Part shown: one piece after another, positions 15,001-24,000 of the stretch
Layout of the letters: each line of letters starts with the position of its first letter
Position numbering within the stretch: position 1 is the stretch's first letter
Assembly: GCA_963793865.1 (NCBI GenBank)
Contig: CAWCBP010000012.1
Location: forward strand, 96,001 to 160,000
DNA length: 64,000 nucleotides
Direction of reading: 5' to 3'
Source of the DNA: an uncultured delta proteobacterium
Lineage (GTDB): Bacteria; Desulfobacterota; WTBG01
Position numbers: made by a program

Positions 15001-18000
15001 GGTGTTATTTTGTCTTCATCCCGCCAGTCAAAGTATGAAGGGAGATGCCGCACGGGGTAAGGCCTTTTGAGCCGGCGTTCTTCAATGCTGCAGGGGATGG
15101 AGCCGGGCAGATTAGCGCTTTGACCAGGGGGCAGGTTATACATCCGGGTCTCGTCCACGGTAAAATTAAAACCCTGCTGCCGTATGCGATTTCTTATCTC
15201 CTCAATCGAGGGAAGAGGCTTATAGTCTGACCCTGCCATACTATCCTCAACAGTTTGCCGGAGCGGGCTGGATAGGTTCCAGCCGCATGCAGTCTTGAAG
15301 GAAATGCCCAGTGATAGTAAACAGGTACAGAAAATGAAAAAAGGCTTGTTCATGGGAATGTACCCCCGGGATAGATTCATGTCACTGTTCCGGAGATGAA
15401 CGGGTTGCTTCCCGATTGTGGGCCGGCATGTCCGTATTACCATCCACGCCTCAGTGAGACAGCTGCTGAAGAAAACCATCTCAGGTAAACAAGAAAGGGT
15501 TACTGCACCTGGGTGAGGAGGTAATGGCGGAAGGCATGGATCAATACAGGATATGCCGGCCCCATTGACAAAATCCATGTGTATCAATTACAAATGCCGT
15601 CATTGCACGTATTGTAACAGAGCACCAGGTCGATGTAGTACATCATCCATGCCAGTCCCAGGCAGGGCACAACCTCTTCTCCGCCCAGCACGCACATCAC
15701 TGCTGTCGCAAACCATGCAACCAGAGCAATTTCATCACAGCCGATGCCTTTTGGCTGCCCCGCGTTGTACCATGCCCACCAGTCATTGGCTTTTACTCCG
15801 GATGTGCCGTATCTGTAAAAGGCGCTGAAATTGTCCGTGCAGCATTTTGTGCAATCGCATGCGGCATTACAATTCTTGTCACTGGGCAGCCCCGGCAGTA
15901 TGGCGGCCGAAGCGGTTTGCGCCACGCATGTCCAGGCCACCAGTAAAGCTATCATTGCGGCGATAGTTCGAATCTTCATTTCACTCACCTCCTTTCTTCT
16001 CAATGGTAATTTTGTCCTTCTTTTTTCCGTCACCTCCTTGCATGTCACCGCCTGTGCTCCTTCCTTGCGCTCATGGCATATCTTCTGCCAGTGGCGTCTG
16101 CCCGTTTTCTATAGCCGTAATCACTTCTTCCAGATACGTGAGGGAAGGGGTCCCTGACAGATAGAATCCATTAATGATTATGCCGGGGGTGCTGTTGATG
16201 CCCGCCAGGGCAGCCTCGGTCACATCCTTTTCCACCTCTTCCCTCCTACTGTCATCCTCCAGACACCGGTCAAACCGTACGGTTTCGAGGCCCGCCTGCC
16301 GGGCATATCTGCGCAGGCTTGCGACGTCCAGTTCCTGCTGATTGTCAAAAAGCAGATCATGATAATCCCAGTAGCGGTCCTGATCGTCGGCACATGCCGC
16401 TGCCAGCGCGGCCATGGGGGCGTCAGGGTGGGAAGGGAGCGGAAAGTCCCTGGCAACGATTCGTATGGCCCCTTTCTTTGTAACCAGCAGTTCTTTCAGT
16501 GTTGCGCTTGCCTTTTTGCAGGAGGGACACTGAAAATCAATGAAGGACTGAATGGTGATGGGGGCATCTCTGCGGCCAAGCCAGGGACCATCATCAGGCG
16601 TGAGGTCAAGGCGGAGAAGCGGTGGACGTTTGAGGAGAATTTCAATTCTCGATTGGTCCCGCAGTCCCCGGACAAAGGCTTCCCGTGCCTCGTTGACAGA
16701 AGCGGCCTTTTTCATTTCAACCACCTTGCTTTTAATGGCCTCTATAAACGGAGTGCCGGCACTGCCTGCCGGAAGAGAGATCCCCTCCGCGGCGTCCGGT
16801 GCTTGCATCACCGCAGTCCTTTTGGAAAACGATGGGAAATCATGCTGCATCTTTTTGACAAACTCCTGAAAGAGGGCTTCTTTATCAGATTCAAATGCTT
16901 GTGCCTTTTCTTCCGCCTGCGCAGTGACCATGGCGATAAGTTCATCAGCCTTCATGTTTCTTTTCGCCGCCTCCTGTTCCAGAAGCTTTTGGTCAATGTG
17001 CTGCTGAAGGACCGCCTTCTGCTCCCGGTAGAGACGAACCTCCATCGCCTGCAGCTCAACATTGTATCGCTGCGCCGGGTCATAACCGAGTTCATGCAGG
17101 CGAATTGCCGTTCCATCAATTCGTGCAATCACCCTGTCTCGTGCTTCCGCATCATCCAGGGCAGTTTGCTTGTCACCTGCAATAGAGGTGAATGCTGTAC
17201 CAAGCAAGGCACAGTGGACAACCACTACAAGCGCCGGCATTTTTCTCATGGCATTTCCTTTTTTCGTGGGTTTTTTTTCGTCCGGAGTCTGGCCCGGCAC
17301 GCGCTCTCCGCATGCCGCTTTCTTATCCGGAGCATTTATTAACCGGGTTGAGGGAGGTTGTGTTTCATAAGGTTTCTAAAAACAAGCCTGCATAGGGCGG
17401 CAAAGTGATCTTCCATTGCGCGGCAGAACATTTCCTCGGTCAGCGTGTCTGTTTTTGCCCCCTCGAGCAGTGAGTCGAGTTTCTTTATGAATTCATCGCC
17501 ATTTAAAAACTGTATGGAAAATCTGTTCATAAGGTATCCGGCAAGATTGCGGGTCCGAACCGTGTCCCACGTGTAACGTTCTTGAATAAAAGCTGTTTTC
17601 TCTTCCATGTCTTCGCTGTAAGAAACACCGGCGGGATAGGCCGCGTATTCCGGATGCGGCTCCCGGCCGGGTACGGCTGCTGCCTTGAATTGTTGTATGC
17701 GCGCCTCAAGCAGGCGGGTAAAGGCAGATGTGCCTGACTCCATAAAACTCTCCTCCATGACCCGGTAGAAAACGCCCTCGTCTATGTGCGTTCCCCCCGC
17801 CCGCGCCAACCGCTGCTCGAGACGTTCCGCGAAATCGTCAATCAAGTGTTGCGAAGGAAGCTTGTTGACAAGCGCCCAGGCACGTTTTTCGGCCTGCTGA
17901 TCCTTCCATGCATAGTGCTTCTTCAGCTGCGCGATTTTCTTCTCCACCGTTTCCTCCCGCGGGCAGGTTTTTGTTCCTGAAGCGCTGCTGCCCGTCCAAA

Positions 18001-21000: not shown

Positions 21001-24000
21001 GGCTGTCCTTGCCGGGAGATCGTGACTGACTGATGCGAATGCCGTCCCTGGTAATGGTCCGGTATCCCTCCAGCTTCTCCCGTACTTCTTTTTTGTCTTC
21101 CTGCAACAGCGTGACCTTCGTTTGATATATTGCTTGAGAATGATCGCTGCTTCCCGATGTTGATCCGACCGGCTCGCATTCGTCAAGCCTGATGGCGTAG
21201 TCAAGCCTTCTAAAGCATGGGTTGCCGTTTTCTTTGAAGAAAACCCTGTCGTCGCTTTCTCCCTCTCTGAGATACATCTCGCCTGATTGCGAGTAACTTC
21301 CCCAAAACCCCCCTGCCAGCACCATCAGAAGGCCGCTGTGCGCCAGGTAAAATCCCCCATGGTAAAGCCTGCCCCGCTGGCAGAAAAAAACAGATCCGGT
21401 TGTGCTGTGGTGTACCGATGGTCTGGATAGTTTTTTGGCCAGAAGACTGTAAAGGGCCGGGTAGAATCCCTCCCGCAGGAAGGCCACAGTAAAGGTATCC
21501 CGGAAAAGCGGTGAAGACGGCATTGTGCGTCTCTCCGCAGACCTGCTGAGAGAAAGAGCCTTGAGCGTTCCCGGTATGCGTTTTGCCATGCAGGCAATCA
21601 GGTTCAGGATAAACAGGATGAGCAGCATTTTGAAAAAGCGGGAGGCATCAACATCAGTGGAAAAGCAACCATTAAGAAGATTGCTGACACTGCCGCTTCC
21701 GGGCAGATGAATAGCTCTAACAAAGGAAATAATCCCGCCCTTCATGAGATCCGCAAGCATGGTGAGTAAAAACATGACCAGCAGAATAATGGTAAAGTTG
21801 ATTGAAGATATAAAAGTGAAGATGCGGTTTAGAATCCTTTTCACGCCGTCCCTGCGCACCAGGCTTTGCTATCCTGACCTGGCGCATGAATACAATTCTC
21901 TGTTTTGAATCATTGGCAACTCGTTTTTGAGATTACCTTGTTGGATTTCGTGAGGCATGGATCCCATGGCGGACATGTGATTGCGCAGAAAGGAGTTTTG
22001 CATCATGGCCTTTAATCCCTTGAAAAGCATGCTCTTCTTACATTCATCCTCCAGCGCATTCCACTGCGGCAGTTTTTTTTGATAGTATGTTTTGTAGCAC
22101 CGCAATGCCTCCTGAAATACTTCATCGCGGGTCATGCTGCGCGGTTTTATGACGGGGTTACCAGGTTGTAGTTGCTGTAGTCCCAGTCCTCGATATAGGG
22201 TTTCAGATCCCGGTATATGTCAGCATAAGGCCAGGGGGTTATCATGAGGAAATGAGGATTATCCGCGTTATAGTGTTGAGCCAGATCGAGGGTCTTCTGT
22301 ATCGATTGTGGCGTCTCGTGTGGCAGGCCCAGGATAAAAGAGCACTCGGTTATGATATGGTGCTCGTTCAGAAGCCGGATGGCCTCGCGGCATTCCCGGC
22401 AGGTCTGGGATTTTTTAAAGATATCAAGAACCGTCTGGTCCGCCGACTCGACGCCGATGAACATATGAACGATGCCGGCCTTGCGATACTTGAAGAGAAT
22501 GTCTTTATCTCTGACAATATCTCCGGCGCGGGTCTCGGCCAGCAGGTATATGCCCAGGTCTTTTTCTATCAGCAGGTCCAGGATTGCCTCCCAGCGTTCC
22601 CGGTCGCAGGTGGGATATTCATCAGCAATGAAAAAGGCGTTCACGCCAAAGCGGTGAAAGAGGTATTCTATTTCCCCGACAAAGTTTTGCGGACTCCTCG
22701 CGCGATAGGACTGCTGCCAGAATTTCTGCTGTGAACAGAAAGCGCAGCTGTTGCCGCAACCTCGCGAAGAGGAAACAAGGGCCACCTTTGCATCCTCAAG
22801 GAAGCTCAGGTAGTAGTCTTCCCAGCAAAGAAGATCCCAGGCAGGAGAGAGCGAATCAAGGTCATCCATAAATTCCCTTTGTGGTGTCATGATAATCTTT
22901 CCACCCTTCCGGTATGCAATCCCTTTAACCTCTGACAGTTGCCTGTTTCCCTCAATGGCGTCCAACAGTTCCGTGGTTGTATATTCGCCTTCCCACCTGA
23001 CAATGTAATCAATGACCCCGTTTCCCTGCTGCAGGGTTTCTTCGGGCATCATGGTGGGGTGGATGCCGCCGATGATGGTTATGATCTGCGGATCGATGGA
23101 TTTGGCCAGGGCGAGCACCCGGGTGGCATCGCGGATGGTGGCGGTATAGGCGGTGGAGCCGACGATATCCGGCCGTGACTCGGTGATGCGCTTGCTGATG
23201 TCCACATAGGTGTGGTCCTTTGCCATGGCGTCATAGATTTCAACTTCGTGCCCGGCATTTCTCAGCTCACCGGCTATATAAAGGAACCCCAGGTTGGCCC
23301 ACCTTCCCGCCGATTCAACCACCCCGCAGTGATAGGGCGGGGTAATAAGCAGTATCTTCTTTCCCATGCATTTCCTCCCTGAATGCAATGCCACTCTTCA
23401 GCACTGGCGCATTACTGCATGGCAACAAGCGTGCCAGGGAAGAAAATGCGGACAAGACCGCTTTAATCCCGTGATGTCAAAACTGTTTTTTTATGAGGGA
23501 GCGGTTTTAAGAGAGGATGTAGTGGAAAGAGATGCAGGAGTGGTTGTAGCCCGATTAGTACAGGCTCAGGAAAAGTAATTGCCCAACTGCGGGAAAAGGT
23601 TTTACTAAATAGAGGCTGTACGATAGGTCAACAGTGCGTAAAAGGATATATACGAGACTTGGGGACGTTGTTGACTAAGTGGAATAAGTTGTGCCGCTCA
23701 AGAATCGCATAGACCACGAACGATACCCTGCCCTCAGAACAATCTGCTTAAAATCCTGTCAGTATCCTGCCTGTAACACCATTCATCCAACAGCTTTTTC
23801 CCGAAACATGAACCCTACAGAGAGCATTGAATACAAGCAAGGATGATCGCAATCATGTTATATAAACGCCGGGTTAATAAAGACACTTGCCGCTGCTCTT
23901 GCGAATGAACTAAATTAAATCAAAGGTCAATTCCACTTAGTCAACAACGTCCCCAATTATGGTTTTTGTATAAAACATATTGACATTTGTAAATTGAAAG

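Follow-up and report, generated by a model that had tools for sequence, protein, structure and literature searches.

Gene content of the locus

In the window, the whole stretch of 64,000 nucleotides analysed here, a row of nine genes runs along the minus strand from position 23394 to 12449. It encodes a BchE-like, cobalamin-dependent radical SAM enzyme (rSAM), ResB, CcsA, two proteins designated c13 and c14, a SurA_N/thioredoxin protein, a Cys-rich protein, a papain-like protease and an NHL propeller. Intergenic spacing is -23 to 60 nt from the rSAM gene through the Cys-rich gene, and the order of all nine genes is retained in the related loci L015-L018 (tblastn). ORF calling and searches against Pfam and NCBIfam bore out the ORFs, domains and short spacing that the genome-wide survey's note had described for 16071..23367; the operon, which that note had ended at 16071, continues to 12449.

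The N-terminal 415 residues of the rSAM enzyme are encoded at 22147..23394 (PF02310, 2e-28; PF04055, 2.1e-23), and the C-terminal rest lies in the +1 frame at 21869..22159, reading on as NPVIKPRSMTRDEV (translation, tblastn to relatives); as a separate ORF it was called at 21869-22135. The frameshift between them, already noted in the survey, maps to 22152..22157, where related contigs have a C-run longer by one base: the missing base belongs to the cccc run at 22154-22157. All five Logan contigs crossing 22152-22153, from four other public runs and four studies, carry the extra base, and the gene is therefore intact in near relatives. The tail frame is 52-75% identical to the tails of the relatives in L009-L019 (tblastn, best segment per locus). 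Most likely, the frameshift is an assembly error or private to the strain. Orthologues, among them open frames of 511, 526 and 515 aa, occur in six of 42 genomes of the class, as had been reported.

ResB (CcsB-like, 478 aa, 20423..21859; PF05140, 109.8 bits) has the conserved His174, which is His in 37 of 41 aligned sequences including that of the window. The CcsA-like protein (Cytochrom_C_asm, 284 aa, 19508..20362; PF01578, 109.1 bits; TIGR03144, 150.3 vs a cut-off of 187.6) retains the haem-handling residues H65, H140, H241 and H280 and the WWD motif WGHYWSWDPVE in an alignment of 44 CcsA sequences. It has R211 at the first Trp of the WWD motif. Its substitutions of otherwise conserved Trp residues (W-to-R, W-to-V) recur in L016 and L017, where the genes are intact.

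The secreted c13 (286 aa, 18670..19530; alignment A4) carries a signal peptide and is followed by the membrane protein c14 (431 aa, 17339..18634; alignment A5, 22 sequences); neither has a family in Pfam or NCBIfam. The exported protein at 16071..17300 combines a SurA_N-like part (SurA_N_2, 4.8e-5, under its Pfam cut-off) with a Thioredoxin_4/DsbA-like domain with the active-site motif CPSC (PF13462, 6.3e-29; PF01323, 3.5e-14). The small secreted Cys-rich protein (15584..16048), the mature part of which contains 12 Cys and no His, is found at the same position in L015-L018 with 59-94% identity (tblastn). The papain-family cysteine protease (13866..15587; PF00112, 5.1e-46; PF18560, 2.6e-20), the C-terminal domain of which is lectin-like, is syntenic in L016, L017 and L018. 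The row ends with an NHL-repeat beta-propeller that begins with a lipobox-like sequence and carries a CFI-box-CTERM tail (12449..13678; PF01436, 1.2e-21; NF041770, 49 bits vs a cut-off of 40). Upstream of the rSAM gene, the ORF map leaves an intergenic region of 619 bp (23395..24013), the presumed promoter, beyond which a divergent gene on the plus strand encodes an AAA_14/DUF4143 ATPase. Consensus scans of this region gave nothing above shuffled controls, and an Rfam search gave no match.

Relationship of the radical SAM enzyme to BchE

The best NCBIfam match of the rSAM enzyme is BchE (TIGR02026), with 374 bits against an equivalog cut-off of 481; the window's enzyme and all eight relatives tested score between 374 and 439 bits, below this cut-off. 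The models ranking after BchE include ApyD and RiPP C-methyltransferases. The identity to BchE of about 40% given in the survey agrees with the 36-40% to annotated BchE measured for P0004, a full-length orthologue that is 89% identical to the window's enzyme. The rSAM enzyme has the same architecture as BchE, with a B12-binding domain, a radical SAM core and a C-terminal region that is similar in both; the alignment covers profile positions 1-470. In our tree, which is without BchQ and BchR sequences, the sister clade of the rSAM family is BchE from photosynthesis gene clusters (SH-aLRT 99); the family itself is placed outside that clade, and the topology does not track taxonomy. In none of the five genomes searched did a BchM match attain its cut-off, nor was a BchH found. 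Thus, given the score below the equivalog cut-off, the position outside the BchE clade and a genome without BchM and BchH, the window's enzyme is not BchE. Unlike BchE, these enzymes reside in non-phototrophs, next to ResB/CcsA and cytochromes rather than bch or puh genes.

The Cys triad C213/C217/C220 is invariant, as are many other core residues, among 30 sequences of 55-93% identity (alignment A1). The enzyme has neither a hydrophobic segment nor a signal peptide, and its Pfam domains are B12-binding and radical SAM only, with no peptide-recognition or SPASM domain. BchQ and BchR, described as BchE paralogues, are chlorin C-methyltransferases of green sulfur bacteria, which are chlorosome makers. 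They are cobalamin-type radical SAM enzymes that target a side chain of a tetrapyrrole. Were the rSAM clade nearer to BchQ/BchR than to BchE, methylation would be a likelier chemistry than ring closure.

Linkage to System II cytochrome c biogenesis across phyla

The window's genome (G000) contains exactly two ResB/CcsA pairs (tblastn with the window's own proteins), in agreement with the earlier claim of another pair beside a multihaem island. This other, housekeeping pair is located at C1:545.5-547.6 kb, adjoins the multihaem island at C1:548-577 kb and has no rSAM partner. As a control, just one of 18 B12-rSAM paralogues in this genome, the BchE-like one, adjoins a Ccs pair; other B12-rSAM genes are located among lipid genes.

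Among 80 loci with relatives of the enzyme, ResB is present at 44, CcsA at 37 and either of them at 47; a multihaem cytochrome is encoded at 37, an NHL protein (cluster c4) at 29 and the small membrane protein c5 at 27. Since ORFs were called by a greedy longest-ORF script and proteins clustered by single linkage, these locus counts may err in both directions; the CcsA of L015, for example, was overlooked by the ORF caller and recovered by tblastn. ResB and/or CcsA lies within 10 kb in 45 of the 58 loci with an unfused enzyme, and the linked loci represent 14 named phyla. In 41 of these 45, rSAM and Ccs genes lie on one strand; the distance to the closest Ccs gene is at most 500 bp in 29 and at most 2 kb in 40. 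A separate phylum sample had Ccs genes at 12 of 16 loci. The extra, specialised System II module functionally tied to a BchE-like enzyme that the survey had proposed is thus supported much more strongly than by the survey's own evidence. This linkage across phyla is a new result, and our literature searches found no paper on the rSAM family.

The commonest order is NHL, multihaem cytochrome, ResB, CcsA, c5 and rSAM. Most of the 28 cytochromes whose genes directly precede ResB have in common a C-terminal domain that terminates in C-x(3-15)-C-x(1,2)-H. In c5, H12 and H99 are invariant and fall within predicted helices, and 11 of 24 members match CopD weakly. In the window's lineage, cytochrome and c5 are replaced by c13, c14, the thioredoxin-fold and Cys-rich proteins, the protease and the NHL propeller: the window's cassette contains no cytochrome gene (ORF with at least three CXXCH), and the genome has neither c5 nor the cassette-type cytochrome tail. 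This lineage is a cytochrome-less variant of the cassette. The survey's own objection that the operon contains no cytochrome gene is therefore true of this lineage only, as elsewhere a multihaem cytochrome gene lies within the cassette.

The two partners also occur apart. The rSAM is fused to an SRPBCC lipid/ligand-binding domain in 22 of the 80 loci, and no Ccs gene was found at 20 of these 22 or at 13 of the 58 unfused loci, some of which end at contig edges; the enzyme evidently can work without an adjacent Ccs pair. Conversely, a CcsA of the cassette clade is also found beside cytochrome and NHL genes without a BchE-like rSAM (G045:C23).

Specialised System II synthases are known from Wolinella succinogenes, with NrfI for CXXCK and CcsA1 for CX15CH. 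Similarly, the cassette represents an extra CcsA/CcsB-type system beside its client cytochrome, the unusual C terminus of which is a candidate haem site. However, the Wolinella systems are not known to have a radical SAM partner, and the window has no client gene. In Geobacter, multiple dedicated ResB/ResC(CcsA) pairs adjoin multihaem cytochrome genes, and each pair has been proposed to serve the cytochromes encoded nearby (Aklujkar et al. 2009, PMC2700814). Table S5 of that paper contains, uncommented, a cluster of the present kind, and the same order is seen at L141 of our phylum sample, where ResB, CcsA, a LuxE-like gene, c5 and the BchE-like rSAM precede cytochromes with 23, 7, 19 and 7 CXXCH motifs. 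The term 'radical SAM' does not occur in its main text, and the part of the article available to us makes no mention of BchE kinship, a B12 domain or cross-phylum conservation; the window's lineage, moreover, differs from the Geobacter system in being entirely without cytochromes.

A possible role in haem modification

Our preferred hypothesis is that the rSAM enzyme acts on a tetrapyrrole and supplies a dedicated haem exporter/lyase, the second ResB/CcsA pair, a model to which we give about an even chance of being correct. The soluble enzyme would have haem b or a different iron tetrapyrrole as its substrate at the cytoplasmic side of the membrane, its product would be passed to the dedicated ResB/CcsA channel, and this channel would export it and attach or deliver it to an acceptor in the periplasm. 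For most lineages this acceptor would be the multihaem cytochrome whose gene immediately precedes ResB, with the CopD-like c5 as an accompanying membrane protein. As the window's lineage lacks both, its acceptor would be encoded elsewhere or would not be a classical CXXCH protein. The survey had predicted a porphyrin-modifying enzyme acting on the haem handled by this CcsBA pair; the linkage is upheld, while a tetrapyrrole substrate, its modification rather than mere carriage, and the direction of hand-over are what we infer. Modification is suggested by the sisterhood to BchE, the two-His partner c5 and three loci, each a single case. At L083, DPOR-like genes sit between CcsA and rSAM (BchL-like, 334 vs a cut-off of 345; BchN-like, 400.7 vs 324; BchB-like, 462 vs 490); at L040, CysG-N-like, HemA, HemC and HemD genes directly follow the rSAM; and in Thermincola, ResB/CcsA on one side and hemE-hemH-hemY on the other flank a member of a second B12-rSAM family (rSAM2). 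The pairing of rSAM and Ccs in bacteria that do not photosynthesise, from many phyla, suggests that the making of certain cytochromes includes a step not yet described.

Alternatively, the enzyme might methylate or cross-link a protein before Sec export, such as the apocytochrome or, in the window, the Cys-rich protein, which the dedicated ResB/CcsA would then serve. Numerous cobalamin-dependent rSAM enzymes have peptide substrates, the ApyD and RiPP C-methyltransferase models are among those ranking next after BchE, and the unusual cytochrome terminus could be a special modification site. However, the window's lineage keeps enzyme and Ccs without such a cytochrome, Ccs linkage (47/80) is broader than linkage to the cytochrome cluster (37/80), the enzyme is devoid of a peptide-recognition or SPASM domain, the nearest characterised clade has a porphyrin substrate, and DPOR-like and hem genes are among the neighbours. 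We regard this reading as unlikely.

Less probable again is an action on a hydrophobic molecule other than a tetrapyrrole, such as a quinone or lipid, with the Ccs proximity due to co-regulated, horizontally moving islands for extracellular electron transfer. The mostly Ccs-free SRPBCC fusions, the B12-rSAM genes among lipid genes and a tree at odds with taxonomy are consistent with this. Yet the adjacency is immediate and same-strand over 14 phyla despite otherwise different neighbours, the rSAM-ResB-CcsA trio was kept in the window's lineage while the remaining cassette was replaced, and the SRPBCC domain could, in our opinion, as well bind a porphyrin.

By analogy to HemW, a haem chaperone of radical SAM fold which retains its cluster and has been linked to the trafficking of haem to respiratory proteins (PMC10114771), the enzyme might instead be a carrier that binds haem in the cytoplasm, loads ResB/CcsA and perhaps adds reducing power, which we consider improbable to a still greater degree. 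The close pairing with a haem exporter and a two-His membrane protein would suit delivery. Against mere carriage stand the invariant Cys triad and core residues, although HemW also keeps its cluster, the housekeeping Ccs pair without a comparable partner, and the tailoring-type genes nearby (DPOR-like, LuxE-like adenylating enzyme, second rSAM), which suggest chemistry. Moreover, HemW is HemN-like (class C) and lacks a B12 domain, the available part of the cited article describes no Ccs linkage for it, and relatives of the window's enzyme matched the HemW model with 34 bits at best.

Least probable of all is decay of the module in this genome, with a true rSAM pseudogene and a functionless operon: the frameshift, the missing cytochrome partner and the Trp changes in CcsA would fit, but the lesion is single and within a homopolymer, the gene is in frame in all crossing contigs, the downstream frame is conserved, the Trp changes recur in L016 and L017 beside intact genes, and the sister MAG L018 has several broken genes of the type expected from long-read homopolymer errors.

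Of the proteins that accompany the haem-modification candidate in the window, c14 has only 23 relatives among 5.8 billion proteins, and its AF2 model (pLDDT 74.5) gave no match to the PDB at E<=0.001 with Foldseek. It is predicted to have about seven N-terminal helices, with H20, H82, H123 and H131 invariant in the 22 aligned sequences, followed by two copies of a helical repeat of about 65 aa. A single copy of the same repeat is present in c13, the N-domain of which resembles PilQ-N weakly (E 0.27, a lead only), and P0137 is a natural fusion of c13 and c14.

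Gene row and enzyme of the window

The genes in question form a compact row on the minus strand of the window, extending from 23394 to 12449. The row starts with the gene of a BchE-like B12-binding/radical SAM enzyme (rSAM), which is split into two ORFs (22147-23394 and 21869-22159) and was identified by ORF and domain searches. Domain searches likewise delineated the genes for ResB (20423-21859) and CcsA (19508-20362), which constitute the System II (Ccs) pair, for two proteins without family, c13 (18670-19530) and c14 (17339-18634), and for a SurA_N-like plus Thioredoxin_4/DsbA protein with a CPSC motif (16071-17300). 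This is the minus-strand row that the genome-wide survey's note had described, and both ORFs and domain searches bear it out; the row is, however, longer than proposed there and continues with a Cys-rich secreted protein of 154 aa (15584-16048; from ORF and sequence), a papain-family protease with a lectin-like domain (13866-15587) and an NHL propeller (12449-13678), the latter two recognized by domain searches. The gaps between the genes range from -23 to 60 nt as far as the Cys-rich gene, and 187 nt lie ahead of the NHL gene. The rSAM gene is the first of the row, since a non-coding stretch of 619 bp separates it from an ATPase gene of opposite orientation upstream. Promoter and terminator scans performed no better than shuffled controls (10 versus 11.4±3.6 and 10 versus 12.9±4.0), and a search against Rfam revealed no riboswitch or other RNA within 12000-27000. 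The divergent gene just upstream of the operon encodes an AAA_14/DUF4143 ATPase (24014-25183, plus strand), and a 352-aa secreted protein with SVSGG-type repeats and a weak LbR_Ice_bind beta-roll match is encoded further upstream (25376-26434, minus strand). The NHL propeller has a lipobox-like N-terminus (LLLCG) and a C-terminal CFI-box-CTERM domain (NF041770, 49 bits, cut-off 40).

The first reading frame of the rSAM gene stops at 22147, the site being a run of four C at 22154-22157, and the +1 frame goes on as NPVIKPRSMTRDEV, which is the continuation conserved in relatives. Logan contigs from four sequencing runs of four studies were aligned to the window, and every contig crossing the site (two from run X1, one each from X2, X3 and X5) has one extra base at 22152-22153; these contigs are 90-99% alike to the window and, thus, come from relatives, not necessarily from the same population. 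The split by a frameshift that the survey had noted is therefore present in the assembled sequence but does not hold for the lineage, and we concluded that the rSAM gene is intact there and that the break is an assembly error or private to the strain. Long-read assemblies often break genes into pieces. A sister MAG (L018, 89% identity, 270-kb contig) has several of these genes in two to three fragments, which points to frequent homopolymer errors among MAG assemblies of this group.

Its domains (PF02310, 2e-28; PF04055, 2.1e-23) and a CxxxCxxC triad (C213, C217, C220) that is invariant in the rSAM alignment A1 mark the enzyme as a predicted cobalamin-dependent (class B) radical SAM protein. 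Its N-terminal part scores 374.1 bits against the BchE equivalog model TIGR02026 and is, thus, below the cut-off of 481.35; the full-length orthologue P0004 (89% identity) reaches 402.6 bits and seven further relatives 387-439. For comparison, four annotated BchE proteins were taken from plasmid or chromid records; three of them are encoded in photosynthesis gene clusters, beside puhE/hemN, ppsR/bchJ or bchJ. In a tree of 100 rows (quick IQ-TREE, LG+G4), the four BchE proteins form a clade of their own (SH-aLRT 100). Its sister clade (support 99) consists of 82 proteins of non-phototrophs and includes the window enzyme, which is placed outside the BchE clade. A BchE host makes Mg-protoporphyrin IX monomethyl ester by means of the BchH/D/I chelatase and BchM; in contrast, the best BchM-like match in the window's own genome (98.6% complete) has 40 bits at a cut-off of 158.9 and no match to BchH occurs, and four other carrier genomes similarly have no BchM above the cut-off and no BchH. 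Judged by these sequence comparisons, the window enzyme is not BchE. The family comprises 2368 database matches at E<=1e-30, many of which, from Acidobacteriota, Bacillota, Planctomycetota and others, are automatically named 'anaerobic magnesium-protoporphyrin IX monomethyl ester cyclase', an annotation that is almost certainly wrong in non-phototrophs.

A cross-phylum cassette

Using the family alignment, 80 rSAM loci with up to 10 kb of flanking sequence were retrieved from species-representative genomes. ORFs were called by a simple greedy script and clustered by blastp, and since these gene calls are rough and miss some genes, the following counts are to be read accordingly. Five neighbor clusters are recurrent: ResB (c1, 44/80 loci), CcsA (c2, 37/80), multihaem cytochromes (c3 and c11, 37/80) with typically 10-11 and a maximum of 37 CXXCH motifs, among them an 11-haem type of ~540 aa, the NHL propeller (c4, 29/80) and a small protein of 113-145 aa (c5, 27/80). 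The usual order, on one strand, is NHL, cytochrome, ResB, CcsA, (c5), rSAM. ResB and/or CcsA are present in 45 of the 58 loci with an unfused enzyme and in two of the 22 whose enzyme carries a C-terminal SRPBCC domain (Polyketide_cyc2) as a fusion. An rSAM ORF of at least 460 aa occurs together with a Ccs gene in 45 loci; the two share a strand in 41 of them, and the distance from rSAM to the nearest Ccs gene is at most 500 bp in 29 loci and at most 2 kb in 40. The Ccs-linked loci belong to 14 named phyla, so that the tie between the BchE-like enzyme and ResB/CcsA, which the survey had proposed from the window and a few relatives, clearly recurs.

Among 401 genomes sampled evenly across the window's phylum, 16 carriers were identified at E<=1e-100. 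The 16 loci evaluated, which come from the 14 carriers other than G000 (the window's own genome) and G037 and overlap in part with the first set (e.g. L135/L067), have a Ccs gene in 12 cases, both Ccs genes on the rSAM strand in 10 and a cytochrome with at least four CXXCH in 11. As an internal control, only one of the 18 B12-rSAM paralogues of G000 adjoins a Ccs pair. The topology of the rSAM tree does not match taxonomy, suggesting horizontal transfer of the cassette as a whole. Taken together, comparative genomics lends good support to a functional coupling of this enzyme family with System II, which we consider very probable. The SRPBCC-fused loci (22/80) are mostly from Nitrospirota, e.g. 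L023, L025, L026, L028, L030 and L033, and 20 of them are without Ccs neighbors.

Compared with the six members of the cassette, the window has rSAM, ResB, CcsA and NHL and is devoid of c5 and the cytochrome. The note's statement that no cytochrome gene lies in the operon is correct for this row, where no ORF with at least three CXXCH was found, but does not apply elsewhere, as many cassettes of other lineages include a multihaem cytochrome. Two further statements were confirmed: orthologues of the enzyme occur in 6/42 class genomes, and the ResB/CcsA pair of the row is an extra one, since tblastn with the window's own proteins identified exactly two pairs in G000, the second of which adjoins the multihaem island on contig C1. 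The finding is real: the window shows a form, specific to its lineage, of an association that is widespread and had not been interpreted before.

That a Ccs pair can be dedicated to certain cytochromes is a known idea. For Geobacter, Aklujkar et al. 2009 (PMC2700814) reported four ResB/ResC pairs that are all located beside multihaem cytochrome genes, and each pair was proposed to serve the neighboring cytochromes. Table S5 of that work lists a radical SAM gene (GSU2888 = Gmet_0597) in such a cluster without comment, preceded by a hypothetical gene that is probably c5, and the term 'radical SAM' is absent from its main text. Our locus L141 comprises ResB, CcsA, a LuxE-like gene, c5 and the BchE-like rSAM, followed by cytochromes with 23, 7, 19 and 7 CXXCH; this is the gene order of the Geobacter cluster in Table S5, from which we infer that GSU2888 is a member of the rSAM family. 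This uncommented entry is the sole trace of the pairing that our literature searches revealed. GSU2888 does not occur in the main text of any paper searched, the available portions of reviews and papers on BchE and tetrapyrrole radical SAM enzymes make no mention of such relatives, and, bioRxiv supplements and files 13-19 of PMC2700814 aside, no paper was found in which a BchE-like or B12 radical SAM enzyme is connected with ResB/CcsA. Thus, as far as our searches reach, the BchE-related partner, c5 and the cross-phylum cassette have not been described.

Ccs proteins, cytochromes and accessory proteins

The Ccs proteins of the window look functional as judged by their conserved residues. CcsA scores 109.1 against PF01578 (cut-off 29.9) and 150.3 against TIGR03144 (cut-off 187.6) and retains H65, H140, W216, W220, W222, D223, H241 and H280, while the first Trp of the WWD motif is Arg211; in the window, L016 and L017, two otherwise conserved Trp residues are replaced (by R211 and by Val). 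ResB scores 109.8 bits against PF05140 (cut-off 24.6), and its His174 aligns with a transmembrane His kept in 37/41 sequences. All cassette CcsAs tested (178, 165 and 150 bits) fall below the CcsB equivalog cut-off of 187.6, and in a tree they constitute a separate clade (support 99), to which the other paralogues of the CcsA family in these genomes do not belong. In the maximum-likelihood tree, the window CcsA groups with the housekeeping copy of G000 (SH-aLRT 95), which hints at a separate recruitment; however, the AU test did not reject a single clade with the cassette CcsAs if two nested Thermincola copies were included (p 0.32), and rejected it only if these were counted outside the group (p 0.0009). 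As the groups had been named after inspection of the tree, we do not maintain this claim.

Dedicated synthases of the NrfI/CcsA1 type have an adjacent client apocytochrome with a non-standard haem motif, which is absent from the window's cassette. In the broad clade, a client cytochrome is present and most of these have an odd C-terminal Cys/His motif, to be compared with the NrfI/CcsA1 type. The cytochrome at L021:5918-7540 and 27 others encoded just upstream of ResB share a C-terminal domain with two CXXCH, G(N)IHGG and F(M/L)xGGWxxGW, and most end in C-x(3-15)-C-x(1,2)-H ... GK.YT(R), a few having a single Cys there. This C-terminal motif may be a special cofactor site. A profile HMM of the cassette-cytochrome tail gave generic CXXCH matches only in G000 and no tail of the cassette type.

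The membrane protein c5 has three helices in its predicted structure (AF2 pLDDT 87.6), and H12-D13, R74 and K98-H99 are invariant across 24 sequences; its two invariant His residues, predicted to be transmembrane, would suit haem binding. It also follows rSAM in loci without Ccs genes (L032, L034, L042, L058, L068). None of the libraries searched provided a confident family for c5. Weak Pfam matches to CopD were obtained for 11/24 members (best 2.3e-5), a c5 profile had 0 matches among PDB sequences, and the ESM Atlas yielded nothing for c14 and, for c5, only clusters without name, in which the CopD/DUF4149 leads were <0.9. Foldseek against the PDB at E<=0.001 returned no match for either c5 (best 0.39) or c14 (best 0.93). 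A complex prediction of a cassette rSAM (A6) with c5 (A2) scored 0.00 in both runs, which is evidence neither way. A link of CopD to HemJ would make c5 a candidate HemJ relative; we do not rely on this, as PF03653 is not among the 25 families listed for c5 and none of the papers searched contains both CopD and HemJ.

In L015-L018, the order is rSAM, ResB, CcsA, c13, c14, SurA_N/thioredoxin, Cys-rich, (protease), NHL. The c14 family is very small, with 23 proteins at E<=1e-3 among 5.8 billion. Its N-terminal part comprises about seven helices, in which four His residues are invariant, and a helical repeat of ~65 aa (RYxW...) is present twice thereafter; a third copy is found in c13, which has a signal peptide. 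A metagenome protein from JGI (P0137, 701 aa) is a natural c13-c14 fusion, which ties the two proteins together and would place the repeats in the periplasm. The thioredoxin-fold protein (PF13462, 101.7 bits) has the CPSC motif and an N-terminal hydrophobic segment and is of the DsbA/Thioredoxin_4 type. We read c13, c14 and this protein as a putative periplasmic and membrane accessory set of the window's variant, in which c14 possibly takes the place of c5.

Substrate and meaning of the pairing

The closest characterized clade, BchE, acts on a porphyrin, and some contexts of the enzyme point in the same direction. In L040, rSAM is directly followed by a sirohaem-synthase-like gene, hemA, hemC and hemD, and in an Actinomycetota MAG (L083:4907-8433) BchL-, BchN- and BchB-like genes reside between CcsA and two BchE-like rSAM genes, each of these contexts being a single locus. 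The BchN-like protein exceeds the cut-off of the DPOR-N model (400.7 versus 324 bits), the other two fall just short (334 versus 345; 462 versus 490), and the genome has no match to BchM or BchH; L083 has nitrogenase-like tetrapyrrole reductase genes in a non-phototroph context. A second B12-rSAM family tied to the system, rSAM2, forms a separate clade in the tree and precedes c5 in Geotalea, Nitrospirota, Deferribacterota and one Bacillota locus. In Thermincola ferriacetica (G045 C36, L133:973-16859), a 1982-aa cytochrome, a solute-binding protein, ResB, CcsA and a LuxE-like acyl-protein synthetase are followed by a 439-aa rSAM2, 42% identical to that of Geotalea, and by MarR, hemE, hemH and a hemY-like gene. 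As rSAM itself has neither a signal peptide nor a hydrophobic segment, any chemistry must precede export. Modification of a tetrapyrrole substrate before export is the best-supported mechanism, and we regard the case for it as evenly balanced.

Other roles are to be weighed against a modified haem. Copies of CcsA that group with the cassette clade also adjoin cytochrome and NHL genes without a BchE-like enzyme, and the SRPBCC-fused forms largely occur without Ccs genes; both observations weaken this reading, as does the window's lineage, which has no cytochrome or c5 in the row and no cytochrome with a cassette-type tail in G000. The enzyme might, instead, modify a protein, which would agree with the C-terminal domain shared by cytochromes upstream of ResB, but leaves aside the porphyrin chemistry of BchE and the hem genes nearby. 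A role as chaperone is to be set beside the invariant Cys triad, and an unrelated hydrophobic substrate would have to be reconciled with the frequent Ccs neighbors of the unfused enzyme. Local decay of the module would fit the missing cytochrome of the window but meets with an rSAM gene intact in the lineage.

The general view of cytochrome c maturation is that the haem b used is unmodified, and, to our knowledge, odd binding motifs or dosage are the only explanations offered until now for spare System II pairs. It might tentatively be speculated, as a possibility we hold to be rather doubtful in its entirety, that in anaerobes of the metal-respiring type some multihaem cytochromes carry a porphyrin-altered haem, which is modified in the cytoplasm by the BchE-related rSAM and for whose export and attachment a matched ResB/CcsA pair has co-evolved. 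The alteration could be the alkylation of a side chain or, as with BchE, the closure of an additional ring, and in some lineages a second B12-rSAM, a LuxE-like adenylating enzyme or a DPOR-like reductase might assist. The window would then be a further variant, whose product might be passed to a non-CXXCH acceptor via c13, c14 and the thioredoxin-fold protein.

The conserved and presumably horizontally mobile pairing with those non-photosynthetic proteins that are closest to BchE suggests an unrecognized step of cytochrome biogenesis, either a modified haem or a specialized loading route, in organisms that matter for iron cycling, corrosion and bioelectrochemistry. It also provides a testable function for a very large family that is automatically annotated as BchE-type cyclase, and as cultured carriers exist, namely Geotalea, Thermincola and Carboxydocella (P0064, named as in its source), the hypothesis is directly testable.

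A LuxE-like adenylating enzyme is encoded between CcsA and c5 in cassettes of the Geobacter type (L141:7164-8414; Table S5, PMC2700814); that it activates a carboxylate, e.g. a haem propionate, is pure speculation. Two B12-rSAMs on contig C5 of G000 were considered as part of the system, since they are located near cytochromes, and were rejected, as their direct neighbors are lipid-type genes. At this locus (L129, 4683-16725), they are found among fatty-acyl reductase-like, SCP2, MMPL and AMP-binding genes together with two U32 peptidases and a class-III aminotransferase, and cytochrome genes adjoin.
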